The notes under the pieces: generated by a model
Seen by the model: the letters and a program-made list of their open reading frames with translations, nothing else
Databases searched by the model: none
What the model was told of the DNA's origin: nothing
In this document: positions 16,991 through 32,371 of the stretch, in pieces
Layout of the letters: every line of letters begins with the position of its first letter
Position numbering within the stretch: position 1 is the stretch's first letter
Assembly: GCA_041488455.1 (NCBI GenBank)
Contig: JBGPPG010000002.1
Span: 8,662-72,661, forward strand
Direction: 5' to 3'
DNA from: Gemmatimonadota bacterium
GTDB taxonomy: Bacteria > Gemmatimonadota > Gemmatimonadetes > Gemmatimonadales > GWC2-71-9
DNA: 64,000 nt
Program-made: the position numbers and the translations under genes

Positions 16991-17131
16991 GTCGCCTTCC
17001 GGAGCGGTTTCGGAGGGGTTCGGGGCGGGCTCCGGGCCCGAACGTCACTTATCCCCACGAAAATGGTGCGGTGGAGAAAGGGAGGAACCGATTCCTGATG
17101 AATGTTTTGTGATGTGGAAAACACCTCTTGC

Positions 17132-17160
17132 TTGACCGATCCGGCGCCCCTCCGTATATT
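17132..17160 (+). promoter_or_regulatory. sigma70-type promoter candidate for the sigma factor gene
   Basis: TTGACC (17132-17137), 17-nt spacer, TATATT (17155-17160). An AT-rich stretch lies directly upstream. About 80 nt before ATG 17246. Confidence 0.5.
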
Positions 17161-17245
17161 CAAGAGCCGCAACGGCTTACGACGCAGTCCCCTTGATTTG
17201 ATCTCCACAATCGGTCGTTAGGTCAACCCTCGCTCGGGGTGGTCT

Positions 17246-18142
17246 ATGCCTGTCGTCCGCAACAACGGGAATCCCCGCCCGCTGTTCCGCACCGCTCCCT
17301 CCAGCGCGTTCGACCAATACCTGCTCGACATCCAGAAGCTCCCGATGATCACGGACCCTGAGGAGGAAAAGCGGTTGGCGCGGCGCGCGCAGGCAGGTGA
17401 CGCGACGGCCGCTGAACGCCTGGTGACGGCCAACCTCCGATTCGTCATCTCCTACGTCAAGAAGTATCAGGGACACGGGCTCGAGCTTTCCGAGCTGGTC
17501 GCGATCGGTAACGAGGGACTGCTCAAGGCCGTTCGCAAATTCGATCCGGAGCACGGCGTCAAGTTCATCTCGTATGCGGTGTGGTGGGTACGCCAGGCCG
17601 TCCTCAAAGCCCTTGCCGAACAGACTCGCAGCGTCCGGATCCCCCTCAATCAGAACTCGGCGCTGATCCGTATGTCCCGCGCGGAGAGCTTCCTCGCCCA
17701 GGAGCTTGGCCGTGAGCCGACCGACCACGAGGTCGCGCTGGCGCTCAACGACACGGTGGACAACATCCGCGCCGCCCGCCGGATGACCGGGGCCGAGGTG
17801 TCGCTGGACGCCCCGGTCGAGCGGCAGGACCGGGCGTCGAGCACCTTCGGTGAGCGGGTGGCAGGCACGGGCCACGGCGAGATCGAGGAGATGACCGACA
17901 GCCGCCTGCGCCGGGAGTTCATCGAACGGCTCTTCGAGCGGCACCTGACACCGCGTGAGCGCAAGATCCTCTCCCTCTACTACGGACTGGAGGAGGGCTC
18001 GGAGGCGCTTACGCTGGAGAAGATCGGCGCGCTGCTCGGGGTCACCCGCGAGCGCATCCGCCAGATCCGGGAGCGGGCATTCGAGAAGCTGCGGGAATCG
18101 CCGGACGTGAAGTCGTTGAAGGAGGGATGGGTGGCAGCGTAG
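17246..18142 (+). CDS. RNA polymerase sigma factor, sigma70 family (RpoD/RpoS-like, lacks region 1.1)
   Basis: Region 2 (NLRFVISYVKKYQGHGLELSELVAIGNEGLLKAVRKFDP, FISYAVWWVRQAV), region 3, and region 4 HTH (LTLEKIGALLGVTRERIRQI). Confidence 0.9.
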   Translation: MPVVRNNGNPRPLFRTAPSSAFDQYLLDIQKLPMITDPEEEKRLARRAQAGDATAAERLVTANLRFVISYVKKYQGHGLELSELVAIGNEGLLKAVRKFDPEHGVKFISYAVWWVRQAVLKALAEQTRSVRIPLNQNSALIRMSRAESFLAQELGREPTDHEVALALNDTVDNIRAARRMTGAEVSLDAPVERQDRASSTFGERVAGTGHGEIEEMTDSRLRREFIERLFERHLTPRERKILSLYYGLEEGSEALTLEKIGALLGVTRERIRQIRERAFEKLRESPDVKSLKEGWVAA

Positions 18143-18302
18143 CAGCTATTAGCCGTTAGCCGTTAGCCCTTAGCCGTAGACTGGGGCCCTCCGCGAGCGT
18201 CGCGGGGGGCCTCGTTTCATTCGGAGCCTGAGCAGCTAACGGCTGAAGGCCAACGGCGAACAGCTGCCAGCCTTTAGCTAATGGCTAACGGCTAACGGCT
18301 AT
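18142..18302. repeat. heptamer-array inverted repeat element, TTAGCCG flavour
   Basis: Left arm: TTAGCCG TTAGCCG TTAGCCC TTAGCCG (18149-18176). Central GC hairpin: GGCCCTCCGCG-AGCGT-CGCGGGGGGCC (18185-18211). Right arm: ten in-register heptamers of CGGCTAA type (18233-18302). Confidence 0.85.
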
Positions 18303-18311
18303 CTTACACCC

Positions 18312-18983
18312 ATGCCCCCGTACCCGTTGCCTCTCTTTCCCCTCCAGGTTGTCCTGTTCCCGGGCACGCCGCTCCCGCTGCACATCTTCGAGCCGCGCTA
18401 CCGGCAGATGCTCGCGGATTGTCTCACGGGTGAGTCGCGGTTCGGTGTCGTGGGCCCGGGACGGGACGGCGAGGCACCCGACGTGGGCGCCGTGGGCTGC
18501 GCCGCGGAGATCCAGGGCAACGAGCAGCTCCCCGACGGGCGCTCGAACATCCTGGTCGTGGGCGGCGCCCGCTTCGTGGTGCAGCGGATGCTGGATGACC
18601 CGGCGCCCTATCACGTCGGCCTGGTGGAGGAGTTCGAAGAGCGGCCGAACACGCTGCCGCCGGCAGAGCCGCTGAGCGAGGTCCGGGATCTCTTCGCGCG
18701 GTACTACGAGATCTACCGATCGCTTCAGGATGTGGAGCCCGAGCGGCCTGACCTGCCGGAGGATCCCGTTCCGCTCAGCTTCACCATCAGCGCAGCGGTG
18801 GACTGCGACCCGGACCTCAAGCGGCGGCTCCTCGCGACGCGCGCCACCGACGAGCGGGTCGCCCTTTTGATGCGCCTCATTCCCGTGCTCACCCGGTCAC
18901 TCGAGTCGGCGCTCCGGGTGCACCATCGGGCGCGCCGCAACGGGAAGGGCAACATCCACTCGGTCCTCCCGGCCGATTCATGA
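18312..18983 (+). CDS. LON peptidase N-terminal (substrate-binding) domain protein
   Basis: PLFPLQVVLFPGTPLPLHIFEPRYRQM is the typical start of a LON N-terminal domain. No ATPase or protease part. Confidence 0.85.
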   Translation: MPPYPLPLFPLQVVLFPGTPLPLHIFEPRYRQMLADCLTGESRFGVVGPGRDGEAPDVGAVGCAAEIQGNEQLPDGRSNILVVGGARFVVQRMLDDPAPYHVGLVEEFEERPNTLPPAEPLSEVRDLFARYYEIYRSLQDVEPERPDLPEDPVPLSFTISAAVDCDPDLKRRLLATRATDERVALLMRLIPVLTRSLESALRVHHRARRNGKGNIHSVLPADS

Positions 18984-20413
18984 GCCCGGCGCTGCTCGAC
19001 GCGCTGAGCGGCATCGTCGGGCCCCGCTGGGTTCGGCACCGCAAGGCGGAGCTCACGACCTACGCCATGGACGGGTTGCCCACGCACGAGTCGCTACCGG
19101 GCGCCGTCGTCATGCCGGCGAGCCGAGCGGAAGTCGTCCAGGTCGTCCGCCTGCTCCATCTCCTTCAGGTGCCCTTCGTGGCCCGCGGCGCGGGCACCGG
19201 GCTCTCAGGCGGCGCGCTCGCGGACCCCGGGACGGTGCTGCTCGTGCTCACGCGGATGAATCGCATCGTCCGGGTGGACCGAACGGCCCGGCGGGCCGTC
19301 ATCCAGCCCGGCGTAGTGAACGCGCGCCTGTCCGAGGCCGTGGCCCCGCTCGGTCTCCAGTACGTTCCCGACCCGTCGAGCCAGGCCGCCTGCACCGTCG
19401 GCGGCAACGTCGCCGAAAACGCGGGCGGCCCGCACTGCCTCAAGTACGGGGTCACCACCAACCACGTGGTAGAGCTGGAGGTGGTGCTGCCCGATGCGAG
19501 CGTGGTGCGGCTCGGGTCGCCGCAGGGTGACCCGTGGGGTCCTGACCTGGTGGGACTCTTCGTCGGCAGCGAGGGCATGTTCGGCGTCGCGACCGAGATC
19601 ACCGTGCGGCTCGAGCCGATTCCGGCCGCCGTGCGCACCATGCTGGCCGACTTCTCCAGCGTGCGCGGCGCGAGCGAGGCGGTCTCTGCGATCATCGCCT
19701 CGGGCGTGGTGCCCGCGGCGCTCGAGATGATGGACCAGGCGTGCGTGCAGGCGGTCGAGGCGTCCATCTACGCCGCCGGCTATCCCACCGACGCCGCCGC
19801 GGTGCTGCTGGCGGAGGTGGACGGGACACCGGAGCAGGTCGAGGCGGAGGCGATGCTGGTGGAGGAAATCCTGCGCGCGCGCGGGGCCCGCGGGGTGAGG
19901 AGCGCCTCGTCCCCGGCCGATCGCGCCCGCCTCTGGCAGGGCCGCAAGAAGGCCTTCGGCGCGATGGGCCGCATCGCCCCCGATCTCGCGGTGCAGGACG
20001 CCGTGGTGCCCCGCTCCGCGCTGCCCGACATCCTCGACCGGATCGCCGAGATCCGCGGGCGGCACGCGCTCTCGATCAGCAACGTCTTCCACGCCGGCGA
20101 CGGAAACCTGCACCCGAACATCAGCTTCGACCGGCGCGATCCGGCGCTGGCCGCGCGCGTGCGCGAGGCGAGCCGGGAGATCATGGCGGTGTGCGTCGCC
20201 GCGGGCGGCAGCATCACCGGCGAGCACGGAGTGGGCAACGACAAGATGGGATACATGCCCTGGATCTTCGATGCCGAGACGCTCGGCGCCATGCAGGCAG
20301 TGCGCCGCGTGTTCGATCCGGACGAGCGCTGCAATCCGGGCAAGATGCTGCCAGAGCGGTCTTGCCGCGAATGGCGCGCCGCATCCGGAGCGCGGCGACA
20401 GGAGGCACCGTGA
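18980..20413 (+). CDS. glcD: glycolate oxidase subunit GlcD (FAD-linked oxidase)
   Basis: FAD-binding PCMH domain (VARGAGTGLSGGA). C-terminal FAD-oxidase domain (GEHGVGNDKMGYM). Followed by glcE and glcF. Confidence 0.88.
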   Translation: MSPALLDALSGIVGPRWVRHRKAELTTYAMDGLPTHESLPGAVVMPASRAEVVQVVRLLHLLQVPFVARGAGTGLSGGALADPGTVLLVLTRMNRIVRVDRTARRAVIQPGVVNARLSEAVAPLGLQYVPDPSSQAACTVGGNVAENAGGPHCLKYGVTTNHVVELEVVLPDASVVRLGSPQGDPWGPDLVGLFVGSEGMFGVATEITVRLEPIPAAVRTMLADFSSVRGASEAVSAIIASGVVPAALEMMDQACVQAVEASIYAAGYPTDAAAVLLAEVDGTPEQVEAEAMLVEEILRARGARGVRSASSPADRARLWQGRKKAFGAMGRIAPDLAVQDAVVPRSALPDILDRIAEIRGRHALSISNVFHAGDGNLHPNISFDRRDPALAARVREASREIMAVCVAAGGSITGEHGVGNDKMGYMPWIFDAETLGAMQAVRRVFDPDERCNPGKMLPERSCREWRAASGARRQEAP

Positions 20414-21615
20414 TCTTCGCCCGCCTGCGCGCGTTGCTCGGGCCCGCGGCCGTGGATCGCGACTCCGACAACGTTCCCCGCGTGACCCCCGACTCCACCG
20501 ATGCGCTGGCGCTGGTCTGCCGGCTCGCCTACGACGAGGGCTGGAAGATCCGGGTCGAGGGGCTCGCCTCCTGGCTCCCGGCCGACGCCCCGGCGGACCT
20601 GGCCGTGAGCACCCGGGCCCTGGACGAAATCGTCTCGGTAAATCCCGCCGACCTCGTGGCCACGGTGCAGGCCGGCGCGCCCATGGACGCCATCCGCCGG
20701 CGACTGGCCGAGCACGGCATGTGGCTCGCCGTGGACCCGCCTGGGCGGCCGGAGCGCACGCTGGGCTCGGTGATCGCGACCGGCACCAGCGGCCCGCTCC
20801 GGCACGGATTCGGCCCCGTTCGCGATCACATCCTGGGCTGCACGGTGGTAACCGGCGACGGGCGGATCGTGAAGCCGGGCGCCCGGGTCGTGAAGAACGT
20901 CGCCGGGTACGATTTGACCAAGCTGCACGTGGGGAGCTTCGGGGGTTTCGGCATCCTCACCGAGGCCCACCTGCGCCTCCGGGCGGCGCCGCGAGCGGAC
21001 GTCACGCTCGTCTGCCGCGGCAGCCGGGACGCACTCACCGCGGCCGCGCGTGACCTCCTCGAGGCGCACGCCGCGCCGGCAGCCCTGGAGCTCGTGTCTC
21101 CGGCCCTCGCGAGCGAGTCGGAGTGGGTGCTCGCCGCGCGGTTCCTCGGCGTGGACGCCGCGGTGCAGGGAGACGTGCGCCGCCTGCCGGCGGAGACTGA
21201 CGCGGTGTGGGAGCAGCTCCCGGCGGACCGGACCGCCGCCTTCTGGGCGCTCCTGGCGCGCGGCAGCCTGAGCGGGCCGATCACGTTCCGGCTCGGCGTG
21301 CTGGCCTACGGACTGGACGACACCCTCGACCTTCTCGCCCACGATCTCGACGACGGCATCATCGCGGCCGGTGCCGGCAGCGGGTCGCTCCGCTGGACTG
21401 GCGACGGGCCGATCGAGCGCCTGCGTGCAGTGCGCCGCGCCGCCGCCGCGCGAGAGATCCCCATGACCCTGGAGCGCGCGCCCTGGGCGGTCCGCCGGAC
21501 GCTGGGCCACTTCGGCGCGTACCGCGAGGGCCTCGGCCCGCTGGTGGACCGCCTGCGCGACACGTTCGATCCCAAACAGGCGTTGAGCGTGGCGCTGGAG
21601 GGCAGTGAGAAGTGA
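20410..21615 (+). CDS. glcE: glycolate oxidase FAD-binding subunit GlcE
   Basis: GTG start in a GTGA overlap with the glcD stop, with GGAGG 5 nt upstream. FAD-binding domain (KNVAGYDLTKLHVGSFG). The upstream part of track ORF 19741..21615 is an artefact. Confidence 0.82.
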   Translation: MIFARLRALLGPAAVDRDSDNVPRVTPDSTDALALVCRLAYDEGWKIRVEGLASWLPADAPADLAVSTRALDEIVSVNPADLVATVQAGAPMDAIRRRLAEHGMWLAVDPPGRPERTLGSVIATGTSGPLRHGFGPVRDHILGCTVVTGDGRIVKPGARVVKNVAGYDLTKLHVGSFGGFGILTEAHLRLRAAPRADVTLVCRGSRDALTAAARDLLEAHAAPAALELVSPALASESEWVLAARFLGVDAAVQGDVRRLPAETDAVWEQLPADRTAAFWALLARGSLSGPITFRLGVLAYGLDDTLDLLAHDLDDGIIAAGAGSGSLRWTGDGPIERLRAVRRAAAAREIPMTLERAPWAVRRTLGHFGAYREGLGPLVDRLRDTFDPKQALSVALEGSEK

Positions 21616-21632
21616 GAGGTGAGAACTGAGAG
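21605..21632 (+). repeat. heptamer array, GTGAGAA flavour, single arm (4 units)
   Basis: GTGAGAA GTGAGAG GTGAGAA CTGAGAG followed by GGGG. It contains the glcE stop codon (TGA 21613-21615) and ends 8 nt before the glcF start. Confidence 0.8.
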
Positions 21633-21640
21633 GGGCGGCG

Positions 21641-22918
21641 GTGGCTGAGATTGCGTCGGGCTACGACGCGCTGGACCCGTGCGTCCATTGCGGCTTCTGT
21701 CTGCCCGCCTGCCCGACTTACCTGGCCACGGGTGACGAGGCGGACAGCCCGCGCGGGCGCATCGTGCTCATGCGGGCGCTGGAGCGCGGGGAGCTCGACG
21801 CCGAGGACGACGGACTGGTCTCGCACCTGGACGCGTGTCTGGGGTGCCGCGGCTGCGAGCCGGTCTGCCCCTCGGGCGTCGGCTACGGCCGCGGGCTCGA
21901 GGCGGCACGTGAGCAGTTGTTCCGGACCCGCGGGCTCCCCGCGCTTGCCCGTCTCGGGCTTGGCGTCTTCCGGAGCCGGGCACTTTGGCGGGCGCTCTTC
22001 GGTGCGGGCTGGCTGCTCCGCGAGACCGGCATCCCCGCCCGGCTCGCAGGCGAGAGCGGCTTCGGCTTCACCATGGCGATGCTGGCGGCAACGGGGGACG
22101 GGCGGCATCGGCGGGCCCGAGCGGCGGCGACGGGGGCTTCGAAGGGCGCGTCAGTGCGCGGCAGCCCTATGGCTCCGTCAGTCGTCCTCTTTCGCGGCTG
22201 CGTGATGCAAGGACTGTTCGCCCACGTGCACGACGCCACCCGGCGCACGCTGGAGGCCAACGGCTATGAGGTGCGCGAGGCGGAGGGGCAGGCCTGCTGC
22301 GGCGCGCTGCACGAGCATGCAGGGGACCGCGCGGGCGCGGCCGCGCTCGCGGTGCGCAACGTGGCCAGCCTCCTCGACGCAGCCGATTGGATCGTCGTGA
22401 ACAGCGCCGGGTGCGGCGCGCTGCTCAAGGACTACGGCCACCTCCTCGGCACCGACGCCGGCACCCGGTTCGGGGCCAAGGTGCGCGACGTCTCCGAGCT
22501 GCTGGCCGAGCGGGGACCGAGGCCGGGGGGACCGCTTCCGCTCGAGGTGGCCTACGACGCGCCCTGCCATCTCCAGCACGCGCAGCGGGTGCAGGCCGCA
22601 CCGCTCGCGGTCCTCGGCGCGATCCCCGGCCTCCGGCTCCGACTGCTTCCAGGGTCGGATCGGTGCTGCGGCGGCGCGGGCATCTATTCGCTGCTTCACC
22701 CCGGGCTCGCGCGCTCGGTGCTCGACGACAAGCTTCGCGCCTTCCGCGCCGCCGAGCCCGCGCTCGACGCAGTGACCACCGGCAACCCCGGCTGTCTGAT
22801 GCAGATCGGCGCGGGGCTCCGAGCTTCAGGACTCGGAATCCCCGCGGTGCATCCGGTGGAGCTGCTCGACCGATCGTACGCAGCCGGAGGCGTGTACAAG
22901 GAACTGCGCGAACAGTAA
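21641..22918 (+). CDS. glcF: glycolate oxidase iron-sulfur subunit GlcF
   Basis: Two 4Fe-4S motifs (CVHCGFCLPACP, CLGCRGCEPVCP) and C-terminal CCG domains (NSAGCGALL, GNPGCLMQI). Confidence 0.9.
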   Translation: MAEIASGYDALDPCVHCGFCLPACPTYLATGDEADSPRGRIVLMRALERGELDAEDDGLVSHLDACLGCRGCEPVCPSGVGYGRGLEAAREQLFRTRGLPALARLGLGVFRSRALWRALFGAGWLLRETGIPARLAGESGFGFTMAMLAATGDGRHRRARAAATGASKGASVRGSPMAPSVVLFRGCVMQGLFAHVHDATRRTLEANGYEVREAEGQACCGALHEHAGDRAGAAALAVRNVASLLDAADWIVVNSAGCGALLKDYGHLLGTDAGTRFGAKVRDVSELLAERGPRPGGPLPLEVAYDAPCHLQHAQRVQAAPLAVLGAIPGLRLRLLPGSDRCCGGAGIYSLLHPGLARSVLDDKLRAFRAAEPALDAVTTGNPGCLMQIGAGLRASGLGIPAVHPVELLDRSYAAGGVYKELREQ

Positions 22919-22991
22919 GAGGTGAACAGTGAACAGGGGGTTGGGCGCGGTAGGGAGCCGCCCCGTTTACTGTTCACTGCTCACTGTTCAC
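22908..22991. repeat. heptamer-array hairpin element, GTGAACA flavour
   Basis: Left arm: GCGAACA GTAAGAG GTGAACA GTGAACA GGGGG. A 20-nt centre. Right arm: CCCCG TTTAC TGTTCAC TGCTCAC TGTTCAC. The glcF stop TAA (22916-22918) lies inside the second unit. Confidence 0.85.
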
Positions 22992-23001
22992 GTTTCTTGC
23001 C

Positions 23002-23670
23002 ATGACCCGGGCCATCCTCTTCGACTTCAACGGCGTCATCATCGACGACGAGCCGCAACACTGCGAGGCGCTCACCGCGACACTTGCCGAGTACGATATC
23101 CCGCTCGACCGGGAGGCGTACTACCGCGAGTATCTCGGGTTCGACGATCGCGAGTGCTTCCGGTTCACCTTCGAGCGGCACGGCCGGCCGACGGACGCCG
23201 CGGCGCTCTCCGAGGCGATCGAGCGGAAGGCGCGTCACTATGCCTCGGCGATCCACTGCTCGATGACGCTGGTCCCCGGGGCTGCGGAGTTCGTCCGCGC
23301 GGCCGCGGCGGACGGCCTCGCGCTCGCGGTGGTGTCGGGCGCGCTCCGGCGGGAGATCGAACTGGTGCTCGACGCGGCGGGGCTGCGGCCGCACTTCGGC
23401 GTGGTGATCGCCGCGGAGGACGTGTCCGCCTGCAAGCCGGACCCACAGGGGTACACGCGCGCCCGCCGGGAGCTGGGACTCGAGCCCGGGCGCTGCGTGG
23501 TGGTCGAGGACTCGCTCCCGGGGCTGGCGGCTGCGCGGGCGGCGGGACTCCGCTGCGCCGTGCTGACGACGTCCCACCCGGCCGACGCGCTCGGGGCCGC
23601 GGACGCGGTGTGGCCCGACCTCGCCGGGCGCAAACCATCCGACTTGCCGTGGGCCGATGCCGCCGCGTGA
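23002..23670 (+). CDS. HAD superfamily hydrolase (beta-phosphoglucomutase/phosphatase-like, subfamily IA)
   Basis: Motif I in AILFDFNGVIIDDE. Downstream HAD motifs (VVSGA..., VVVEDSLPGLAAARAAG). Confidence 0.82.
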   Translation: MTRAILFDFNGVIIDDEPQHCEALTATLAEYDIPLDREAYYREYLGFDDRECFRFTFERHGRPTDAAALSEAIERKARHYASAIHCSMTLVPGAAEFVRAAAADGLALAVVSGALRREIELVLDAAGLRPHFGVVIAAEDVSACKPDPQGYTRARRELGLEPGRCVVVEDSLPGLAAARAAGLRCAVLTTSHPADALGAADAVWPDLAGRKPSDLPWADAAA

Positions 23671-24646
23671 GCTGCCGTACGATCGCGCGCGGCTCGACCG
23701 TCTGCGTCGCGGCGCCGTGATCGTCGTCGGCGAGCCGGCGGTCTTCTGGGTCGACGGACCGGCCGCGCTTACCTGCCTCCAGGGCCTCCTCACCAACGAT
23801 CTGGACAAGCCGGGCGAGCACAGCCTGATCTACGGCGCGCTCCTCACGCCCAAGGGCGCGATCGTAGTGGACTATTGGGTCTTCCGCGAGCCGGAGCGGT
23901 TCGCGCTGGTGGCCCCGATCGAGGGGCGGCTTGCATCCCACGAGCTGTTCCGCCGGCAGGTGCCGCCACGGCTCGCCCGCATCGCGGACGCGACCGGCCA
24001 GGTGGAGGTCGCGTGGCTGCTGGGGTCGCAGGCGTTCGCCGCGCTCGCGCGCTCGCCCATCCAGCCCATCCCCGATGCCGCCGGTCGCACGGCGACGCTC
24101 GAGTATCCCGAGGGCCGCCTGCTGCTCGGCCTCGCACCGGAGACGGCGCCGTTCGCGGCGGTGGCCCTCGGGCCGCGCGGCGGGATCCGCCAGTTCGCCG
24201 CGGCGCTGGCGGCGGTGGGGGTCGAGCCTGGGACGCCGGAGGACGCGGAGGCCGCCCGGATCCTGGCCGGCTGGCCGGCCCTGGGCGCGGAGATCGACGA
24301 GCGGACGCTCCCGCAGGAAGTCCGCTTCGACCAGCTGGGAGGCGTCTCCTATACCAAGGGCTGCTATGTGGGGCAGGAGACCGTGGCGCGGCTCCACTTC
24401 CGCGGGCACACCAACCGCGAGCTACGGGGCCTCGTGTGGCGAAGCCCGGCGCCGCTCGAGGGCGACGCGGTCACGGCGTCGGGACGCGCGGTCGGAAGCG
24501 TGCGCTCCACGCTCGTGCTCGACGACCGGCTGCTGGGACTCTCGCCCATTCGCCGGGAGGTGGGCCTGGGCGCCGAGGTCGAGGCGGGCGGGCGGGCGGC
24601 GCGGGTGGTCGCATTGCCCTTCGCGGCGGAGGATCTCGACGGCTGA
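23657..24646 (+). CDS. ygfZ: folate-binding protein YgfZ (GcvT-like fold)
   Basis: GcvT-like N-terminal part and the YgfZ signature KGCYVGQETVARLHFRG. The start is uncertain (14-nt overlap with the HAD gene). Confidence 0.8.
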   Translation: MPPRELPYDRARLDRLRRGAVIVVGEPAVFWVDGPAALTCLQGLLTNDLDKPGEHSLIYGALLTPKGAIVVDYWVFREPERFALVAPIEGRLASHELFRRQVPPRLARIADATGQVEVAWLLGSQAFAALARSPIQPIPDAAGRTATLEYPEGRLLLGLAPETAPFAAVALGPRGGIRQFAAALAAVGVEPGTPEDAEAARILAGWPALGAEIDERTLPQEVRFDQLGGVSYTKGCYVGQETVARLHFRGHTNRELRGLVWRSPAPLEGDAVTASGRAVGSVRSTLVLDDRLLGLSPIRREVGLGAEVEAGGRAARVVALPFAAEDLDG

Positions 24647-24660
24647 GGGGCGGAAACGAC

Positions 24661-24693
24661 CGAGCCCCGGTAGAGCGTGCTCCCCGGGGCTCG
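24661..24693. terminator. bidirectional hairpin between convergent ygfZ and the small lipoprotein gene
   Basis: Perfect 10-bp inverted repeat CGAGCCCCGG (24661-24670) / CCGGGGCTCG (24684-24693) with a 13-nt loop. No clear U-tract. Confidence 0.45.
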
Positions 24694-24724
24694 CGGCGAC
24701 AGTGCGACGATCGCGCTTGCGCGC

Positions 24725-24904
24725 TTACATCTTCTTGCTGGTGTCCCGCGCCATGGTGCTGTCGTGATGCATCATCGTGCTGTCCATGCCGCCGGCGGCG
24801 GGTGCGGCGGCCGGCGCTTCGGACGAAGCCGGGGCCTCCGCTTTCTTCTCGCCTGCACAGGCCATAACCGCGAGCGCCGCGGCCAGGCAAAGTGTCTTCA
24901 TCAT
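24725..24904 (-). CDS. small lipoprotein with His/Met-rich C-terminus (59 aa)
   Basis: MMKTLCLAAALAVMACAG (signal peptide plus lipobox). AAGGAG lies 6 nt upstream of the ATGATG. C-terminus GGMDSTMMHHDSTMARDTSKKM. The longer 82-aa track form was not preferred. Confidence 0.6.
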   Translation of the reverse strand: MMKTLCLAAALAVMACAGEKKAEAPASSEAPAAAPAAGGMDSTMMHHDSTMARDTSKKM

Positions 24905-24983
24905 GTGTTGCTCCTTCGAGGGGTTGGGTGTCCAGTAAAATGTAGCGCGCATGCCGTCACTGTCGTCCGGCATACGGCGTGCG

Positions 24984-25011
24984 AAGGTAAGGCGCTATCG
25001 GCGTTTGTCAA
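24984..25011 (-). promoter_or_regulatory. sigma70-type promoter candidate for the small lipoprotein gene
   Basis: Minus strand: TTGACA (25011-25006), 16-nt spacer, TACCTT (24989-24984). Confidence 0.35.
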
Positions 25012-25148
25012 GCCGCCGTGGGGGGCCGATTTAGCAATGTCGGGTGCGGCCCTGGCCCTGCCGGACTTGCCCCGGCGGCCCCATACGGCCACGTTCCGCC
25101 AAGAGGAACCCCGGCGCGGTGCCGGGGCCTCCGAGTCGAGGTAACTTC

Positions 25149-26624
25149 GTGAAATCGCACAGCATCGAGCCCCGGACCTTCGGGGAGCTCCGCAACAGTC
25201 CCTGGGCCGATCCCCCCCTCCGCGGGCGCACAGTCCGGGACGAAATCCGCGCCAATCTTGTAACCCGGCTCACGGCCGGAGAGGAGCTGTTCCCCGGCAT
25301 CGTCGGCTACGAGGACACCATCCTCCCCCAGCTCGTGAACGCGCTCCTGGCGCGGCATCACTTCATCCTGCTGGGCCTGCGCGGGCAGGCGAAAAGCCGG
25401 ATCCTGCGCCAGCTGGTGTCCCTCCTCGACGAGCGCGTTCCGATCGTGGCGGGTAGCGAGGTGAACGATGACCCGTTCGCGCCCATCTCCAAGTACGCCC
25501 GGGACCGCCTTGGCGAGTGCGGCGACGCGACGGCGATCGGATGGCTCGATCGCTCGCAGCGCTACGTCGAGAAGCTCGCCACGCCCGACGTGACCATCGC
25601 CGACATCATCGGGGACGTGGATCCTATCAAGGCCGCGCGCGGCGGGCATCTGCTCTCCGACGAGCTGACCATGCACTTCGGGCTCCTGCCCCGCGCCAAT
25701 CGCGGCATCTTCGCGATCAACGAGCTGCCGGATTTGAGCGGCAAGGTGCAGGTCGGCCTGTTCAACATCATGCAGGAAGGTGACGTCCAGATCAAAGGCT
25801 ATCCGGTGCGTCTCCCGCTCGACGTGCTGCTCGCGTTCACGGCCAACCCCGAGGACTACACCGCGCGCGGCAAGATCATCACCCCGCTGAAAGACCGCAT
25901 CGGATCCGAGGTGATCACCCATTACCCCCGCACCGTGCAGCTCGGCATGGAGATCACGGCGCAGGAGGCGTGGACCCGGCGGGACGGGCCGGAGGTGGAC
26001 GTACCCGACTTCATCCTGGAGCTGGTCGAGCGCGTGGCCTTCGAGGCCCGCGAGGACAAGCGGGTCGACCGCCGCTCCGGCGTGAGTCAACGGCTCCCGA
26101 TCAGCGTGCTGGAGAGCGTCGTCTCGAACGCGGAGCGCCGGGCGATCGCGCTGGGCGAGCGGCGCGCCGTGCCCCGCGTCAGCGACGTCTACGCCGCCAC
26201 ATCCGCTATCACCGGCAAGCTCGAGCTCGAGTATGAGGGTGAGCTCCAGGGTGGGGACGCCATTGCCCGCGAGCTGATCCGCCGCGCCGCCGGGCGCGTG
26301 CTCGATGAGCGGGCCGGCGGCGCCGACCTCAGCCGGATCGTCGCCTGGTTCGATCAGGGCGGCGCGCTCAAGATCTCGGGTGACGAGCGCGCCGAGGTCT
26401 GCGTGAAGGGATTCGGCGTGGTGCCCGGGCTCGTGGACGTCGTGAGCGACGTCGGCCTGGCACCGCGCGGCGACGCCGGCTACGGCGTGGCCGCATGTGA
26501 GCTGGTGCTGGAGGGCCTCGCGGCCCAGAAGCGCATCAGCCGGAGCGAGGAGTTGGGCTACACCCGGGCAAAGCCGGAGAGACGGGATCCGGGGTACGGG
26601 AAAGGTGGGATTTCCTTCGGGTAA
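25149..26624 (+). CDS. AAA+ ATPase of the ChlI/MoxR-like (Mg-chelatase-like) group, partner of a vWA protein
   Basis: Walker A-like LLGLRGQAKS. Walker B region GIFAINELPDL. Start assigned to GTG 25149, with GAGG about 8 nt upstream (the track ORF begins at 25044). A vWA/MIDAS protein is encoded nearby on the same strand. Confidence 0.72.
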   Translation: MKSHSIEPRTFGELRNSPWADPPLRGRTVRDEIRANLVTRLTAGEELFPGIVGYEDTILPQLVNALLARHHFILLGLRGQAKSRILRQLVSLLDERVPIVAGSEVNDDPFAPISKYARDRLGECGDATAIGWLDRSQRYVEKLATPDVTIADIIGDVDPIKAARGGHLLSDELTMHFGLLPRANRGIFAINELPDLSGKVQVGLFNIMQEGDVQIKGYPVRLPLDVLLAFTANPEDYTARGKIITPLKDRIGSEVITHYPRTVQLGMEITAQEAWTRRDGPEVDVPDFILELVERVAFEAREDKRVDRRSGVSQRLPISVLESVVSNAERRAIALGERRAVPRVSDVYAATSAITGKLELEYEGELQGGDAIARELIRRAAGRVLDERAGGADLSRIVAWFDQGGALKISGDERAEVCVKGFGVVPGLVDVVSDVGLAPRGDAGYGVAACELVLEGLAAQKRISRSEELGYTRAKPERRDPGYGKGGISFG

Positions 26625-26722
26625 GCAGTGAACGGTGAGCAGTGAACGGGGAACTCCGCGTTGCACGGAGTCCCCCGTTTACGGTTTACTGTTTACCGTT
26701 CACTTCACTGTTCACCGTTTGC
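26621..26722. repeat. heptamer-array hairpin element, GTGAACA flavour, exactly filling a convergent intergenic gap
   Basis: Left arm: GTAAGCA GTGAACG GTGAGCA GTGAACG. Central hairpin: GGGGAACTCCG-CGTTGCA-CGGAGTCCCCC. Right arm: seven TGTTCAC-type units to 26722. The TAA stop (26622-26624) is inside unit 1. The opposite gene's stop is at 26723-26725. Confidence 0.88.
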
Positions 26723-27346
26723 CTACTTCCATCCCCTCCTCCTCGCCTCGCCGACGATCAGCTCTGCCGCCCCGTCGTACCCCAGCCGCTCGGTGTTGAG
26801 CACGATGTGATACCCCACGGGATCGGCCCAGTCGCGGGAGTAGTGCTCTCGGTGGTACCGCTCCCGCTGGGCGTCCGTCTGCAGCGTCACCCGTTCGGCT
26901 TCCTTGAAATCGAGCCCCAGCCGCTCCGCCGTGACCTTGATCCGAAAGCCTTTCGACGCGACCAGCTTCACATGCAGTGCGTCCCGCTCCCGTGCCAGCA
27001 CCGCCGGTGCCGCCCGGCCGACCAGCACCACCCGTCCCGCCCGCGCCGCTTCCTCGACCACCGCCTCGGTGATCCGCACCAGGGTGGCCTCGGACAGCTC
27101 CGGCACCGTGCCCGTGGCCGGGGGAAAGAGCTCCGGCGTGGACGTGGCGAGCACCCGCGCGAGCCGCTCGATGAAGCTCGGCGTCCGTTCCTCGATGCCG
27201 GCCATTTCCTCCGCCGAGATCCCGGTACGCGCCGCGACCCGCTCGAGCAGCTCGTTGTCCACCAGCCGCCACCCGAGCGCGTCGGCCACGCGCCCCGCGA
27301 CCTCAGAGCCGCCGGCGCCGTACTGGCGGGAGACGGTGATCAGCAT
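26723..27346 (-). CDS. cytidylate kinase-like family protein (P-loop NTPase)
   Basis: N-terminus MLITVSRQYGAGGSEVAGRVADALGW is typical of the cytidylate-kinase-like family. 207 aa. Confidence 0.8.
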   Translation of the reverse strand: MLITVSRQYGAGGSEVAGRVADALGWRLVDNELLERVAARTGISAEEMAGIEERTPSFIERLARVLATSTPELFPPATGTVPELSEATLVRITEAVVEEAARAGRVVLVGRAAPAVLARERDALHVKLVASKGFRIKVTAERLGLDFKEAERVTLQTDAQRERYHREHYSRDWADPVGYHIVLNTERLGYDGAAELIVGEARRRGWK

Positions 27347-27353
27347 GGTCCGC

Positions 27354-28610
27354 TCACGGTCGCGTCCGCCCCAGATACCAGGCGACCCCTGCCACGATCA
27401 GGCAGCACGCCGCGCCGCCCAGCCCGATGGAATAGCGCACGCCGAGGTGCTCCGCCACGATGCCAGCCTGGAACGAGCCGATCGGCGCCAGTCCGAGGAC
27501 CAGGAACGAGTAGACGCCCATCACCCGGCCGCGGAGATGGTCCGGCGCCTGGATCTGGAGCAGCGTGTTCCCTAGGATCCCGTTGGCCGCCATCGTCCAC
27601 CCTGCGAGCGTGAACAGGCCGAGTGATGCCGAGAAGCTCGACACCACCGCGATGCAGGCCAGCGTGGCGCCGAAGAGCGATGACGCGGCGATCAGCAGCC
27701 GCTCCTTCCGGTACCGCTTCCCGAACCCGGCCAGGCCCAGCGCTCCAGCCGCCGCGCCGACGCCGATCGCCGAGACCAGCGCGGCGTATCCCGACGCTCC
27801 GACCTTGAGCACGTCGCGGGCGAAGACCGGGGCCATGATCATGAAGGGGAACCCGAAGATGGCGAAGCCCGCGATGAGCACCACCAGCGCGCGGGGCCAC
27901 CGGTTGTCCAGCACGTAGCGGAAGCCCTCTTTCATCGCGGCGAGTGCGTTCGGGCGGGAGCCCGACGCGGGCGGCGCGGTCCGCATCATGACCAGGCTGG
28001 CCACGACGGCGAGGTAGCTCGCGGCGTTGGCGAAGAAGCAGGCCGCCAGCCCGAACGCCGCGATCAGGGCCCCGGCCACCGCGGGGCCGATCACGCGCGC
28101 CACGTTGAACCCCATCGAGCTGAGGGCCAGCGCATTCATCAGATCTTCCCGCTCCACCAGATCTACCACCAGCGCCTGGCGGGTCGGCACCTCGAACGCC
28201 GAGAGCAGCCCCGCGAACACGGCGAGCGCCATGATCCAGTGGACCGTGATCCAGTGGAACACCGTCAGGATGGCGAGGGCGAGGGCCTCGAGCAGCATCA
28301 GAGACTGGAGCAGCAGGACGAACCGCCGCTTGTCCACCCGGTCGGCCACGACACCCCCATAGAGCGTGAGTAGCAGGATCGGAAGCGAGCCGAGCGTCGT
28401 CACCAGCCCGACTGCGAACGGCGAGTTCGTCAGCTCGAGCACCAGCCAGCCGAGGGCTACCTGCTGCATCAGCGTGCCGCAGAGCGACACGAACTGACCG
28501 ATGAGAAAGAGGCGGAAGTTCCGGTGGCGGAGGGCGGCGAAGGTGGAGCGGAGCCGGAGAGCGGCGGCCCTGGGCAGGGCGGACGCGGCGGCGGTTATGG
28601 CGATGGACAC
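27354..28610 (-). CDS. MFS transporter (EntS/MFS_3-like)
   Basis: LRHRNFRLFLIGQFVSLCGTLMQQVALGWLVL and about 12 predicted TM segments. Start placed at GTG 28610, because the track's N-terminal extension translates the heptamer repeats (PFTVHC...LPFTVYC). Confidence 0.8.
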   Translation of the reverse strand: MSIAITAAASALPRAAALRLRSTFAALRHRNFRLFLIGQFVSLCGTLMQQVALGWLVLELTNSPFAVGLVTTLGSLPILLLTLYGGVVADRVDKRRFVLLLQSLMLLEALALAILTVFHWITVHWIMALAVFAGLLSAFEVPTRQALVVDLVEREDLMNALALSSMGFNVARVIGPAVAGALIAAFGLAACFFANAASYLAVVASLVMMRTAPPASGSRPNALAAMKEGFRYVLDNRWPRALVVLIAGFAIFGFPFMIMAPVFARDVLKVGASGYAALVSAIGVGAAAGALGLAGFGKRYRKERLLIAASSLFGATLACIAVVSSFSASLGLFTLAGWTMAANGILGNTLLQIQAPDHLRGRVMGVYSFLVLGLAPIGSFQAGIVAEHLGVRYSIGLGGAACCLIVAGVAWYLGRTRP

Positions 28611-28619
28611 CGGACAACA

Positions 28620-28701
28620 GTAAACGGTGAACGGTAAACAGTGAACAGGGCCACGGCAGTGAACCGTGAACGGTAAGCGGTGAACAGGGGGTCCGGCCCC
28701 C
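28620..28701 (+). repeat. heptamer array, GTGAACA flavour, two direct blocks of four units plus a G5/C5 mini-hairpin
   Basis: Block 1: GTAAACG GTGAACG GTAAACA GTGAACA GGG. An 11-nt linker. Block 2: GTGAACC GTGAACG GTAAGCG GTGAACA. Then GGGGGTCCGGCCCCC. All units share the same orientation. Located between divergent gene starts. Confidence 0.85.
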
Positions 28702-28808
28702 AGAGGGTCCGCGTTGAACCTTCCGGGGATCGGGGGTAGCATTGAGAAGGCAGGGGATGCCTCCAATGCCCCGTGTTCGCGGTTCTACTCACCGTCCACC
28801 TCTCGGCC

Positions 28809-30098
28809 ATGCGCTTCACCACGTACTCCAAGTTCGTCCCCGAGCTGGCTGACGCCGTCAATCTCCAGGGTCTGCTCGACCAGCTGAGCGACTTCCTCCT
28901 CCAGTCCGGCTTCGCCGGGCAGGGCCAGTCGTTCTGGCAAGACGAGATGGAAGACGGGGACCGCTCGCTGGAGGCGCTCAAGCAGGCCGTGCTCAAGGCG
29001 CTGATGGACTCCGGCCAGCTCACCCCGGAGATGCTCAAGGTCCTTCGGGGCGAGGGCACCGGCGACCCGGAGCGCGACAAGGAGATCGAGCGGCAGCTGG
29101 GCGAGCTGCTGGACCGGATCGTACAGCGGCTGATCGACGAGGGGTACCTGAACGTCACCCAAGCGCCCCAGGTGCCGGGGGGGTACCAGTCCATGTTCGG
29201 CCCGGGCGGCAAGGCCCAGTCCGCCGCCCAGCAGGTGCAGTTCAACCTGACCGAGAAGGGCATCGATTTCCTCGGCTACAAGACCCTCAAGAACCTGCTC
29301 GGGAGCGTGGGCAAGTCGAGCTTCGGAGCTCACGAGACCCCGTATCTCGCCACCGGCGTCGAGACCGAGGGAACCAGCAAGCCGTACGAGTTCGGCGACG
29401 TGCTCAACCTCGACGTCCCCGCCACACTCGGCAGCGCCATCGCGCGCGAGGGGCTGGGCGTCCCGCTCAATCTCGAGTACGAAGATCTGATGGTGAGCCA
29501 GGCCGAGTACCGCTCGTCCTCCGCGACCGTGCTCATGCTCGACTGCTCCCACTCGATGATCCTCTACGGCGAGGACCGCTTCACCCCGGCCAAGAAGGTG
29601 GCCCTCGCCCTGACCCACCTGATCCGCACCCAGTTCCCGGGAGACAGTCTCCGCGTCGTTCTCTTCCACGACTCGGCCGAGGAGATTCCGCTCAGCGCCC
29701 TCGCCGCGGCGCAGGTCGGTCCCTACCACACCAACACCGCCGAGGGGCTCAAGCTGGCCCGCCGCATCCTGCTGGGCCAGAAGAAGGACATGCGCCAGAT
29801 CATCATGATCACGGACGGCAAGCCGTCCGCGCTCACCATGCCCGACGGCCGGATCTACGTGAACTCGATGGGGCTCGACCCGCAGATCCTGGCCGCCACC
29901 TACCGCGAGGTCGCCAACTGCCGGCGCAGCGGCATCATGATCAACACATTCATGCTGGCGCGCGACCGGAGCCTGGTGGAGTTCGTCAAGCAGGTGGCGG
30001 CCATCTGCAAGGGGAAGGCGTACTTCACCAATACGATGACGCTCGGACAGTTCATTCTCATGGACTTCATGAAGCGGAAGACGCGGAGAGTGAGCTGA
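28809..30098 (+). CDS. von Willebrand factor type A (vWA) domain protein with MIDAS motif
   Basis: Start at MRFTTYSKF (ATG 28809). MIDAS DxSxS in [14 protein letters not shown]-terminal vWA fold signature ([11 protein letters not shown]). Confidence 0.8.
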
Positions 30099-32342: not shown

Positions 32343-32371
32343 GGGCCGGAGGACTCTAGGTCCTCCGGCCC
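32343..32371 (-). terminator. strong hairpin terminator candidate at the end of the tad operon
   Basis: Perfect 12-bp stem GGGCCGGAGGAC / GTCCTCCGGCCC with a 5-nt loop, 27 nt after the stop at 32398. Followed on the minus strand by CTTCTTGATG. Confidence 0.6.

Follow-up and report, generated by a model that had tools for sequence, protein, structure and literature searches.

Heptamer repeats have been noted as over-represented in bacterial intergenic DNA since 2007, and to our knowledge there is no accepted mechanism for this over-representation. The closest known case to the element described here, and the best studied of this little-studied kind of repeat, is that of the Xanthomonas GGGAATC heptameric repeats, which include, in each genome, 70-75 inverted pairs in convergent arrangement (Rehm et al. 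2015, PLoS One, PMC4692102). Like the arrays of the present study, they consist of tandem 7-nt intergenic units, mostly about four per array, that sit very close to the stop codon of the preceding ORF or overlap it; the flanking genes are mostly co-oriented or convergent and seldom divergent. They often occur as opposite-strand pairs in which a stem-loop or cruciform is possible, and when related genomes are compared at one junction, the arrays differ in both length and sequence. The Xanthomonas authors centred on G-quadruplex and i-motif formation by a G-rich unit (GGGNATC), whereas the unit studied here, TTAGCCG, has no G-tract. One unit dominates in Xanthomonas, in contrast to the several unrelated unit families per genome found here, and at our locus the arms enclose a separate GC hairpin, predicted to be a terminator, and adjoin a putative leaderless promoter. 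The phyla also differ, those considered here being Gemmatimonadota and Acidobacteriota.

The TAACTGA repeats of Beggiatoaceae, Cyanobacteria and Bacteroidetes comprise 169 direct sets and only 1 inverted set (MacGregor 2015, PMC4679880). Together with the cyanobacterial STRR heptanucleotides, they resemble our arrays in that heptamers are abundant between genes, in tandem sets of 2-6 or more, and that each genome favours units of its own; many of them stand directly upstream of start codons without a Shine-Dalgarno sequence. Almost all TAACTGA sets are direct and oriented to the downstream start, whereas in the class described here mirror pairs predominate and the anchor is the upstream stop. 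In REPs, a single conserved palindrome of 20-40 nt, ending in GTAG or CGTC, has been dispersed in many copies by a RAYT transposase. The REP/BIME elements of enterobacteria and pseudomonads are likewise intergenic palindromes at gene 3' ends, foldable as RNA or DNA. Protection of mRNA 3' ends and nucleoid-protein binding are ascribed to REP/BIME (see also PMC3733652). Our element, by contrast, has no conserved core, its stem is made of tandem units and its changes occur in place. Quasipalindrome template-switch mutagenesis and slipped-strand mispairing are established mutational mechanisms. They predict unit gain and loss, runs of variant units and arm-to-arm correction, as in the mirrored alternation and the switch of unit reported below (loci L001 and L169/170); they are, however, mechanisms rather than element families and leave the preference for 7-8 nt unexplained.

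We analysed a heptamer element lying between a sigma factor gene and a LON-domain gene in a 64,000-nt stretch of DNA from an uncultured Gemmatimonadales lineage (Gemmatimonadota), called the window throughout.

Results

Anatomy of the sigma-LON junction

The two genes and the segments between them are as follows, with the evidence in brackets.

17246..18142, + strand: sigma-70 factor gene, RpoD/RpoS-like, 298 aa, the upstream gene (ORF list, Pfam, NCBIfam)
18143..18177, + strand: left arm, a degenerate CAGCTAT unit and four TAGCCGT/TTAGCCG units (sequence, TRF, lag-7 matches)
18182..18222, + strand: core, a GC-rich stem-loop with T-rich tail, TCGTTTCATTC (terminator scan, folds, ortholog conservation)
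18233..18260, + strand: inner right array, CAGCTAA CGGCTGA AGGCCAA CGGCGAA (inverted-repeat search, register statistics, orthologs)
18261..18281, + strand: junction segment, CAGCTGC CAGCCTT TAGCTAA (inverted-repeat search, L168 ortholog)
18275..18302, + strand: outer right array, TAGCTAA TGGCTAA CGGCTAA CGGCTAT (TRF 18277-18301, inverted repeats, MFE pairing)
18300..18305, + strand: TATCTT, predicted -10 hexamer (TANNNT) of a leaderless promoter (spacing, orthologs, mycobacterial motif)
18312..18983, + strand: gene for a LON substrate-binding-domain protein, 223 aa, the downstream gene (ORF list, Pfam)

The sigma protein matched all of the Pfam Sigma70 regions 1.2, 2, 3 and 4, and its matches to the NCBIfam RpoD/RpoS models were under the equivalog cut-offs; the LON protein matched PF02190 (Pfam, E = 8e-31). 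The sigma gene ends in TAG (18140-18142), followed at once by the degenerate unit CAGCTAT (18143-18149). The first full left unit begins 7 nt past the stop codon, and TTAGCCG units start at 18149, 18156, 18163 (variant TTAGCCC) and 18170, which gives 4-5 left units overall; TRF placed the repeat at 18149-18177, with 4.1 copies at 90% match. The left arm stands in the position of the sigma 3' UTR and supplies TAG in all three frames. The core stem pairs 18185-18196 with 18200-18211 around a GCG loop (hairpin letters GGCCCTCCGCGA/TCGCGGGGGGCC, 18185-18211) and is followed by TCGTTTCATT. The ten right-hand heptamers occupy 18233-18302, and 9 nt, CTTACACCC, separate the last of them from the LON ATG at 18312. 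The outer right array is the main partner of the left arm, with one inverted repeat reaching 95% over 19 nt, and it covers the spacer and the -35 region of the LON promoter. TATCTT overlaps the final repeat unit and ends 6 nt 5' of the LON ATG.

A first-pass annotation of this DNA, made from the letters alone, had described four TTAGCCG units, a GC hairpin, ten in-register heptamers in the order given above and a distance of 9 nt to the ATG, and all of this, coordinates included, proved exact to the base. It had also pointed to a stop codon on both strands of the unit (TAG, TAA), and we found that all three frames close within 25 nt past the sigma stop.

Periodicity and symmetry of the element

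The heptamer element at the sigma-LON gap far exceeds chance. Compared with CGGCTAA, the ten right units match at 6, 6, 5, 6, 4, 3, 5, 6, 7 and 6 of 7 positions. For the inner 42 nt, agreement with the outer-unit consensus is 30/42 in register 0 and no more than 14/42 in the other six registers, and none of 20000 shuffles attained the register-0 value. Lag-7 self-matches amount to 42/63 in the right array and 23/28 in the left array, neither being attained in 5000 shuffles.

The arms are reverse-complementary over 35 nt (18150-18184 with 18267-18301, 86%), and an alternative pairing joins the left arm to the inner right array (18142-18174 with 18235-18267, 82%). Folding of the whole gap gave -94.8 kcal/mol for RNA (z = -7.0) and -51.3 kcal/mol for DNA (z = -6.6); a partial RNA fold is also stable, at -75 kcal/mol. 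Units 5-7 (18261-18281) are not merely decayed units, since a short piece of them, CAGCCTTTAGC, is oriented like the left arm and they hold the centre of a second palindrome, TTAGCTAA (18274-18281). The same feature is present in cleaner form in the orthologs L166-L168, with the perfect palindrome AGCCATTAGCTAATGGCT at the orthologous place in L168. The right array also holds a 42-nt internal duplication, six units long. Neither strand of TTAGCCG/CGGCTAA has a run of three G or three C, so the unit cannot form a G-quadruplex, and the element is grouped as a variant with heptamer SSRs in general and set apart from G4 repeats.

The core hairpin is a predicted terminator

In the terminator scan of 17900-18500 the core hairpin was the sole terminator-like site. 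Its stem of 12-15 bp with a 3-nt loop lies 43 nt past the sigma TAG (within the ~50 nt of the stop taken as criterion), and its tail TCGTTTCATT, with 6 T in 10 nt, passes a simple scan, the T-tract being interrupted and weak. The tail is kept in the window and in L161, L166 and L167, is near-identical in L168 (TCGTTTCGT) and is shortened in L001. Our tally counts the core hairpin as conserved in 10/12 orthologous junctions, with L169/170 given as carrying a different hairpin in its place and L171 as having no separate core hairpin. The core is conserved among orthologs with U.G wobble on the sense strand; across the 12 orthologs its G.U pairs come to 36 for the sense strand and 19 for the antisense strand, and those of the arms to 28 and 22, with no sense-strand excess in the arms, in a comparison of low power between orthologs that are not independent. 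This sense-versus-antisense comparison was used in place of an MFE-based count (28 G.U vs 8 A.C), which is biased by the folding algorithm.

From these properties we predict the core to be an intrinsic terminator of the sigma gene. As in intrinsic (Rho-independent) and bidirectional terminators, a GC-rich stem-loop stands just past a stop codon and carries a T-rich tail, and two sister elements in the window are placed between convergent genes, as bidirectional terminators are. The difference from intrinsic terminators is that the T-tract is weak and the repeat arms lie outside it, so that, when a transcript terminates correctly, the arms cannot belong to its terminating hairpin. Arrays are missing from many of the window's terminator-like hairpins, for instance that at 32343-32371.

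The LON gene has a putative leaderless promoter

TATCTT stands at the expected place of a -10 hexamer and very probably serves as the -10 box of a leaderless LON mRNA, for which the ATG at 18312 is the predicted transcription start. TATCTT or TAGCTT is found 5-7 nt before the ATG in 12/12 orthologs. In 39 of 55 high-GC homolog loci, 5-7 nt separate the end of a TANNNT hexamer from the start codon, the distances peaking sharply at exactly 6 nt (26 loci), and both motif and spacing are as in mycobacterial leaderless genes (PMC3898074). Upstream of the LON ATG there is neither an in-frame start codon nor a Shine-Dalgarno sequence, CTTACACCC having no purine-rich motif. TANNNT also precedes LON in a relative without array (L004, TATGTT) and in distant lineages; the promoter is therefore ancestral, and the array ends at the -10 box and did not donate it. 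The suggestion of the first-pass annotation that the element provides promoter sequence thus stands as far as TATCTT is a probable -10 box, but not as to its origin in the array.

A sigma-70 promoter scan of 17900-18500 returned no full -35/-10 promoter, and where a -35 hexamer would stand, the orthologs, inspected by eye, had only GCTAA-type sequence, a poor match to TTGACA. As neither scan nor inspection found a -35 match in the array, the idea that it supplies this hexamer was dropped. A phase-variable contingency SSR would switch expression when a different unit number shifts promoter spacing or reading frame. Here unit number differs between species-level relatives, the closest available for this comparison having 93% identity (a metagenome scan reached a maximum of 57%). 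The whole of the array is upstream of the -10 box, and its periodicity means that gain or loss of units leaves the -35 sequence as it was. Elsewhere in the window, arrays of GTTTACY type can supply both hexamers.

Persistence and turnover at orthologous junctions

Twelve orthologous junctions with LON identities of 76-100% were found via the protein database, and any stretch of the gap agreeing with the unit consensus at 5 or more of 7 positions was counted as a unit. In L002 a run of 100 N covers the junction, of which only the edges could be used. The left arm was paired with the right arm in the MFE fold of 12/12 orthologs, and the junctions contain 3-7 left-type and 2-10 right-type units. 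The right array of the window corresponds to that of its closest relative (L161, 93% LON identity) with seven units added, and the expansion of the inner right array is not seen in that relative. L162 exhibits local runs of variant units (CTAAGGG three times, CTAACAG twice), which look typical of slippage. Ongoing expansion and decay, proposed in the first-pass annotation from the unequal arms and degenerate inner units, is borne out by this variation in unit counts, by the seven added units, by the 42-nt internal duplication and by the runs of L162. Copy number is also hypervariable in the glcE-glcF array, with 4 units in the window and about 13 in the 93% relative.

The persistence of the element in this clade is accompanied by joint change of its arms. 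In L169/170 the unit has switched to GCTATCC/GGATAGC in both arms alike, and in L001 an A/G alternation is mirrored in both arms; in L171 the repeat units themselves form the sole hairpin. Expansion of the right arm unmatched by any change of the left is seen in L162 and in the window, so that copying from arm to arm is not a necessity. Among the orthologs, the array is best conserved in its promoter-proximal units GGCTAACGGC, and L004 has a hairpin alone at the junction, without array. Within the fetched loci, TTAGCCGTTAGCC was found solely at the sigma-LON junction.

Mirror-image arrays form a widespread class

Besides the sigma-LON element, the window contains five further heptamer elements. 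In three of these, placed where tandem or convergent genes end, the arms surround a hairpin or form one themselves. The six elements have no common core, and their units and hairpins differ. We then considered a census of 160 loci and the window, 1.37 Mb of related Gemmatimonadota and Acidobacteriota DNA. Heptamer arrays had an inverted partner within 200 nt in 62/112 cases and a direct partner in 5, and scrambled probes gave 0; for octamer arrays, 29/39 had a reverse-complement partner within the same distance. Adjacent array pairs were inverted in 25/26 cases. The genes flanking 22 pairs were tandem in 17, convergent in 2, divergent in 0 and not callable in 3, context figures that over-sample the sigma-LON junction because all census loci were picked around one gene family. 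The proximal arm begins -8 to +9 nt from the stop codon in 12 cases. The sigma-LON element, which had been presented as distinctive, is thus one member of a widespread mirror-array class.

Arm pairs are 93% Watson-Crick (598/645), with 14 G.T and 14 A.C mismatches, and transversion-type mismatches are as common as transition-type ones. A register-shift test of mirrored unit variants was confounded by flank extension and is clear only for L115, L082 and L001. The same units recur across loci of one genome (GTGAAC-type at three and GTGAGA-type at two, in 13 kb), and different units occur within one genome (TTAGCCG, GTGAACA, GTGAGAA). At the sigma-LON junction itself the units found across lineages are TTAGCCG, GCTATCC, GGTAAGC, AGGGAAG and octamers. 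The sequence-specific heptad-binding protein envisaged earlier is not supported, in view of these differences within a genome and between lineages at one junction, and of octamers that have the same mirror architecture. A stop triplet is present in 9/14 proximal-arm units, scored by eye; this is suggestive of stop codons in all frames driving unit choice, but several units have none. A purine-rich bias of the proximal arms was weak (~59% purine) and was dropped.

Rfam at gathering score gave no match in the whole window, and at an E-value threshold over 17000-31500 it gave only chance-level miRNA-like matches on a sister hairpin. A search for tRNA and tmRNA returned nothing relevant, and our literature searches found no earlier description of heptamer repeats in Gemmatimonadetes or Acidobacteria.

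Discussion

The explanation that we favour, and hold tentatively, is that the terminator dyad of the sigma gene has been extended on both sides by slippage-prone 7-nt repeats whose arms are kept complementary at the DNA level, TTAGCCG extending the dyad on the 3' UTR side and its reverse complement CGGCTAA on the side of the LON promoter. Replication slippage would make the arrays grow and shrink, and complementarity would be held mainly by a DNA-level process, either template-switch copying across the palindrome, of the kind that corrects quasipalindromes, or selection that favours a strand-symmetric dyad. The core hairpin would end sigma transcripts and the left arm would stay as a single-stranded 3' UTR; both arms would be present only in read-through RNA, where they would pair over 30 bp or more. 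Such a duplex would hide the LON start region from ribosomes and be a plausible target of double-strand-specific RNases, so that LON would rely for its expression on its own leaderless promoter. The array would fill all the otherwise unconstrained sequence between the stop codon and the -10 box. The selective benefit of the arms is probably weak, if there is any, and the presence of both arms in 12/12 relatives could mean stronger selection than we propose, or a function at the DNA level. The dominance of 7-nt (and 8-nt) units over 5- and 10-nt units is left unexplained by a slippage and dyad model.

The arrays might instead be a neutral, self-perpetuating by-product, terminator hairpins stalling replication and seeding slippage, and palindrome-templated copying mirroring the arrays with no benefit to the cell. 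This is possible, if doubtful. It would fit the 2-3-fold shifts of copy number between relatives at 93% LON identity, the arbitrary unit sequences and their turnover, and arm mismatches that have no G.U bias and are as often of transversion as of transition type; it would also fit the many window hairpins without arrays (such as 32343-32371), the L004 junction, which manages with a hairpin alone, and the unmirrored expansion of the right arm in L162. However, both arms are present in 12/12 orthologs at 76-100% identity, a long persistence for a neutral microsatellite, the arms regain complementarity even where the unit has changed (L169/170), and independent slippage does not predict the recurrence of the same units at different loci of one genome. 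This recurrence, the strand symmetry of the arms, the conservation of the promoter-proximal units GGCTAACGGC and the extent of the right arm, which covers the spacer, the -35 and the upstream region of a conserved leaderless promoter, would suit a protein-binding or structural element in DNA, either a cruciform or a site for a nucleoid-associated or dimeric protein, that marks a boundary or regulates the LON promoter. Three heptamer units make 21 bp, or two helical turns. Such an element is nevertheless quite unlikely, as octamers do not have 21-bp phasing, the arms of the window lie 82 nt apart and would extrude poorly, and the differences between units within a genome and between lineages exclude one sequence-specific reader. 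We consider unlikely as well the broader proposal that 7-8-nt mirror arrays are an actively maintained, strand-symmetric gene-boundary class common to Gemmatimonadota, Acidobacteriota and Xanthomonas, made by hairpin-templated copying that keeps the arms in step through unit change and acting at the DNA level, for example by cruciform or hairpin extrusion that insulates the terminator from the leaderless promoter, rather than as RNA structures or G-quadruplexes.

Two alternative pairings of the left arm (82% and 86%), with stable partial and full folds (-75 and -94.8 kcal/mol), are what an RNA switch would show if, in a sigma-LON co-transcript, the left arm alternated between the inner and the outer right array and so controlled termination or LON translation. 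The inner array, however, is absent in the closest relatives (L161, L001), so that a two-state design is not conserved, and the conserved leaderless-promoter signature of LON would place the right arm outside the normal LON mRNA; with arms that have no sense-strand G.U excess and no match to an Rfam family, a switch appears very improbable. The most improbable of all these explanations is the insertion of a mobile element of MITE or REP/BIME type between the two genes. A palindromic, intergenic element near a gene 3' end, with several copies of similar style in the window, would be in keeping with it, but these copies have no common core and each surrounds a locus-specific hairpin conserved in orthologs, and no terminal inverted repeats with target-site duplication are visible. 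Moreover, TTAGCCGTTAGCC is restricted to the sigma-LON junction among the fetched loci, and this junction is occupied in 12/12 orthologs, which indicates that it was inherited vertically and changed in place.

The comparison of orthologs strongly suggests that the LON-domain genes of Gemmatimonadota are leaderless, a signal that helps the annotation of start codons and promoters in a phylum with almost no transcript mapping. An architecture like that of Xanthomonas recurs here with units that form no quadruplex, in two further phyla and with octamers too, and its presence in arrays without quadruplex-capable units makes a common cause in a dyad or hairpin together with slippage more likely than one in a particular sequence. 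The ortholog series, with its conserved core, jointly changing arms and fixed -10 boundary, offers a system in which the birth and symmetry of palindromic microsatellites can be studied, and it could also address whether mirror arrays insulate neighbouring transcription units.

Anatomy of the sigma-LON element

The gap between the sigma-70 gene and the LON-domain gene carries two mirror-image heptamer arrays around a GC hairpin. The layout described in the first-pass annotation was found to be base-exact on checking against the sequence.

Features of the sigma-LON element and its flanking genes (window coordinates)
17246-18142: sigma-70 ORF with Pfam regions 1.2-4; stop codon TAG at 18140-18142
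directly 3' of the sigma stop TAG: single degenerate unit CAGCTAT
18149-18176: left array, four TTAGCCG-type units (TRF, 4.1 copies, 90% match)
18185-18211: GC stem-loop GGCCCTCCGCGA-GCG-TCGCGGGGGGCC
3' of the stem-loop: T-rich tail TCGTTTCATTC, then a 10-nt linker
18233-18302: right array, ten heptamers in a single register
between the right array and the LON ATG: CTTACACCC
18312: ATG of the LON substrate-binding-domain gene (PF02190)

The terminator scan of 17900-18500 returned the stem-loop with its tail as the sole terminator-like site. The ten right-array units matched CGGCTAA at 6, 6, 5, 6, 4, 3, 5, 6, 7 and 6 of 7 positions, and the inner 42 nt of this array agreed with the outer-unit consensus at 30 of 42 positions in register 0, against at most 14 of 42 in the other registers, a score reached by none of 20000 shuffles. 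The two arms are reverse complements over 35 nt (86%), with an alternative pairing of the left arm to the inner right array (82%). Folded as RNA, the gap gave -94.8 kcal/mol (z = -7.0 versus shuffled sequence) and, folded as DNA, a z of -6.6; no Rfam family matched the element. TTAGCCG as a plain word was not over-represented in the window (5 observed, 3.1 expected), and the signal of the element is its tandem and mirrored layout rather than the frequency of this word.

Other heptamer elements in the window

Tandem-repeat finding and a period-7 scan revealed five further heptamer elements in the window, all within 21.6-30.9 kb and of GTGAGAA and GTGAAC(A/G) types.

Further heptamer elements (window coordinates)
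21604-21633: GTGAGAA array, direct only, at the intra-operon glcE-glcF junction
22910-22991: GTGAACA arms flanking a hairpin, tandem genes
26620-26719: GTGAACG arms flanking a hairpin, convergent genes
28616-28690: pair of direct arrays, divergent region
30786-30852: GTGAGAA arms that are themselves the hairpin, convergent genes (UDG, M48 peptidase)

In three of the five, mirror-image arms at the ends of tandem or convergent genes either flank a hairpin or make up the hairpin themselves, and at 30786-30852 the TGA stop codons of both genes fall within repeat units. The period-7 scan detected no such periodicity in the 13 remaining intergenic regions of more than 40 nt, one of which holds a plain terminator hairpin without repeats (about 32343-32371). 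In the rough gene map, 44411-45570 (1160 nt) and 56103-56651 (549 nt) had no ORF of high third-position GC, and no tRNA, Rfam match or repeat periodicity was found in either.

The glcE-glcF array (GTGAGAA/GGGAGAA), which lies shortly before the start codon of glcF, varies extremely in copy number: the window has 4 units (21604-21631), L161 about 13 (6294-6380), L002 roughly 3 and L003 roughly 7, these last three being loci of relatives around LON-domain homologs. This sister array is as volatile as the sigma-LON element.

Persistence and turnover at orthologous junctions

The source organism is an uncultured Gemmatimonadales whose nearest genome loci show 88-89% LON protein identity. From the protein database and contig look-ups we obtained 12 sigma-to-LON junctions (76-100% LON identity), all of which contained left TTAGCC-type and right GGCTAA-type units (3-7 and 2-10 matches per junction, respectively). 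The left and right arms paired in the MFE fold in all 12, enclosing the core hairpin where present (11 of 12); in L171 the GC core is lost and the hairpin is formed by the units alone. The window's right array is that of L161 (93% identity) with seven units added, and it holds a 42-nt internal duplication. L162 shows local runs, CTAAGGG three times and CTAACAG twice, without a mirror in the other arm, which reads as a slippage signature. The "ongoing expansion and decay" of units proposed earlier is thus borne out by the turnover of unit number in this series and in the glcE-glcF array.

The two arms also evolve in concert. L001 forms a compact, nearly perfect 50-bp hairpin (z = -10.7) in which a TTAGCCG/TTAGCCA alternation of A and G is mirrored in the opposite arm. 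In L169/L170 (1347-1503, 78% LON identity), GCTATCC/GGATAGC replaces TTAGCCG/CGGCTAA in both arms, with two substitutions per unit homogenised through all units of both, a clear example of a palindromic microsatellite evolving in concert.

In L004 (66% identity) only a hairpin is present and the arrays are absent, and more distant relatives have different heptamers or octamers at this junction. Octamer arrays were seen in L081 (1644-1874; mirror pair CGGGAAGG/CTCCCGCC), L085 (113-236; mirror pair GACGGGCG/TCCGCCCG) and L084 (673-709; a single array, no mirror pair seen), at 54-57% LON identity. In three loci of the genome collection, L002 (5847-5946), L012 and L063, some sequence is hidden by runs of 100 N; the one in L002 covers exactly the orthologous repeat element, with readable edges TTAGCCATTA... 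and ...GGCTAACGGCTATCTT.

A class of mirror-paired arrays

The census covered 160 loci around LON-domain homologs and the window (1.37 Mb), all picked around one gene family, so that the sigma-LON junction is over-sampled. Period 7 was the commonest (96 arrays, compared with 38, 43 and 18 for periods 6, 8 and 9). Within 200 nt, 62 of 112 heptamer arrays had a partner that matched their reverse complement at 12 or more of 14 positions, only 5 of 112 had a separate direct partner, and scrambled probes gave 0; orientation was inverted in 25 of 26 adjacent array pairs. Inverted partners were also found for 29 of 39 octamer arrays and for some nonamers, so the phenomenon is not strictly heptad-specific. 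The heptamer units are highly varied (82 canonical units), including AGGGATG, GTCATTT, AGTGATG, AAAGTCT and AGTCGAG in Pyrinomonadaceae and Chloracidobacterium, and GGTAAGC, GTGAGCG and AGGGAAG in Gemmatimonadales.

Array pairs lay between tandem genes in 17 cases, convergent genes in 2 and divergent genes in none, with 3 more not callable, among them the window pair at 30786-30852, convergent by manual ORF inspection. In 12 cases the proximal arm starts at -8 to +9 nt from the upstream stop codon. A strong GC hairpin separates the arms in high-GC genomes; several lower-GC cases have just 4-8 nt between the arms, and there the stem consists of the arrays. The sigma-LON element is no one-off: it belongs to a repeat class that is widespread and poorly understood.

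The predicted LON promoter

In 39 of 55 high-GC loci a TANNNT hexamer stops 5-7 nt short of the LON start codon (26 at exactly 6 nt), with almost no signal at other distances, and the 12 orthologs have TATCTT or TAGCTT, then 5-7 nt, then the LON start. The hexamer recurs throughout Gemmatimonadota and in some loci of Chloroflexota and Dormibacterota. Leaderless mRNAs mapped in M. tuberculosis combine a TANNNT -10 box with transcription that begins at the start codon, and they lack a conserved -35 (PMC3898074). Sequence inspection upstream of the LON ATG revealed no Shine-Dalgarno motif and no in-frame start codon. The hexamer and its spacing carry the signature of a predicted leaderless mRNA, and this phylum-wide signature could improve start-site annotation.

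The element had been suggested to provide promoter sequence. TATCTT does stand in the leaderless -10 position, but the hexamer predates the array: it is also present in array-less lineages such as L004, so the predicted -10 box would be ancestral. The array halts at this box, its final "unit" CGGCTAT being half promoter, and the right arm would therefore be promoter-upstream DNA (spacer, -35 position and beyond). It would thus lie outside the normal LON mRNA, and both arms would occur together only in read-through RNA. The feature first noted is real and was correctly observed, and its interpretation was correct only in part.

A canonical sigma-70 promoter, TTGACC-17-TATATT, was seen at 17132-17160, some 85 nt before the ATG of the sigma gene at 17246, so the genome would use both leadered canonical and -10-only leaderless promoters. 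An MFS transporter gene (28608-28645, - strand) seems to have a leaderless promoter made wholly of repeat units: TTCACT (28645-28640), a 17-nt spacer, TACTGT (28622-28617), 6 nt and GTG (28610-28608). In GTTTACY arrays, -35-like and -10-like hexamers are automatically 23 nt apart (3 x 7 + 2).

RNA or DNA level, and a proposed mechanism

Arm pairs were 93% Watson-Crick (598 of 645), the mismatches being G.T (14), A.C (14) and other (19). Both strands of the 12 orthologs were folded, a low-power comparison of non-independent sequences, giving 28 sense versus 22 antisense G.U pairs in the arms and 36 versus 19 in the core. Given its sense-strand excess, the core looks like a sense-strand RNA hairpin, i.e. 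a terminator. The arms, with near-equal counts, look strand-symmetric, which DNA-level copying or a DNA-level dyad would fit better than selection on one RNA.

The comparisons show directly the layout of the element, its place in the class, its location at 3' ends, arms that persist despite turnover and change together, and the leaderless signature. For the mechanism we tentatively favour a composite reading. Units would be gained and lost by slippage, while arm complementarity would be kept by copying across the palindrome and/or by selection for the dyad. The core would terminate sigma transcription, and the arms would lengthen the dyad such that read-through RNA forms a long duplex, poorly translated and open to processing, insulating the LON promoter; the array would occupy the sequence between stop codon and -10 box that is free of other constraint. 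A purely neutral version of this composite is rather unlikely, and a DNA-level binding or structural role, which the strand symmetry of the arms would suit, is a good deal less probable. An RNA switch is very improbable because its two-state architecture is not conserved and LON is predicted to be leaderless, and a mobile element hardly credible, since no core is shared and the change occurred in place.

Relation to known repeats

The nearest precedent is the GGGAATC heptamers of Xanthomonas. Each genome has about 185 such arrays, mostly four units long, whose mean distance to the upstream ORF is 28 nt and which often overlap its stop codon. Few of them lie between divergent genes, each genome contains 70-75 convergent inverted pairs, and array length differs between species at the same junction; the study describing them emphasised G-quadruplex formation (PMC4692102). 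Beggiatoaceae TAACTGA repeats and the STRRs of cyanobacteria are heptamer arrays of a related kind, but nearly always direct (PMC4679880). The defining features of REP/BIME and of MITE are absent from the elements described here, and no prior description of them in Gemmatimonadota or Acidobacteriota was found in the searchable literature.

In contrast to GGGAATC, the sigma-LON unit cannot form a G-quadruplex, several unit families occur within one genome, and octamers act alike; the element is therefore a variant of the general Xanthomonas-type kind. What makes it valuable is the comparative series, with its implications for the cause of bacterial heptamer repeats; the element argues against G-quadruplex formation as their common cause.
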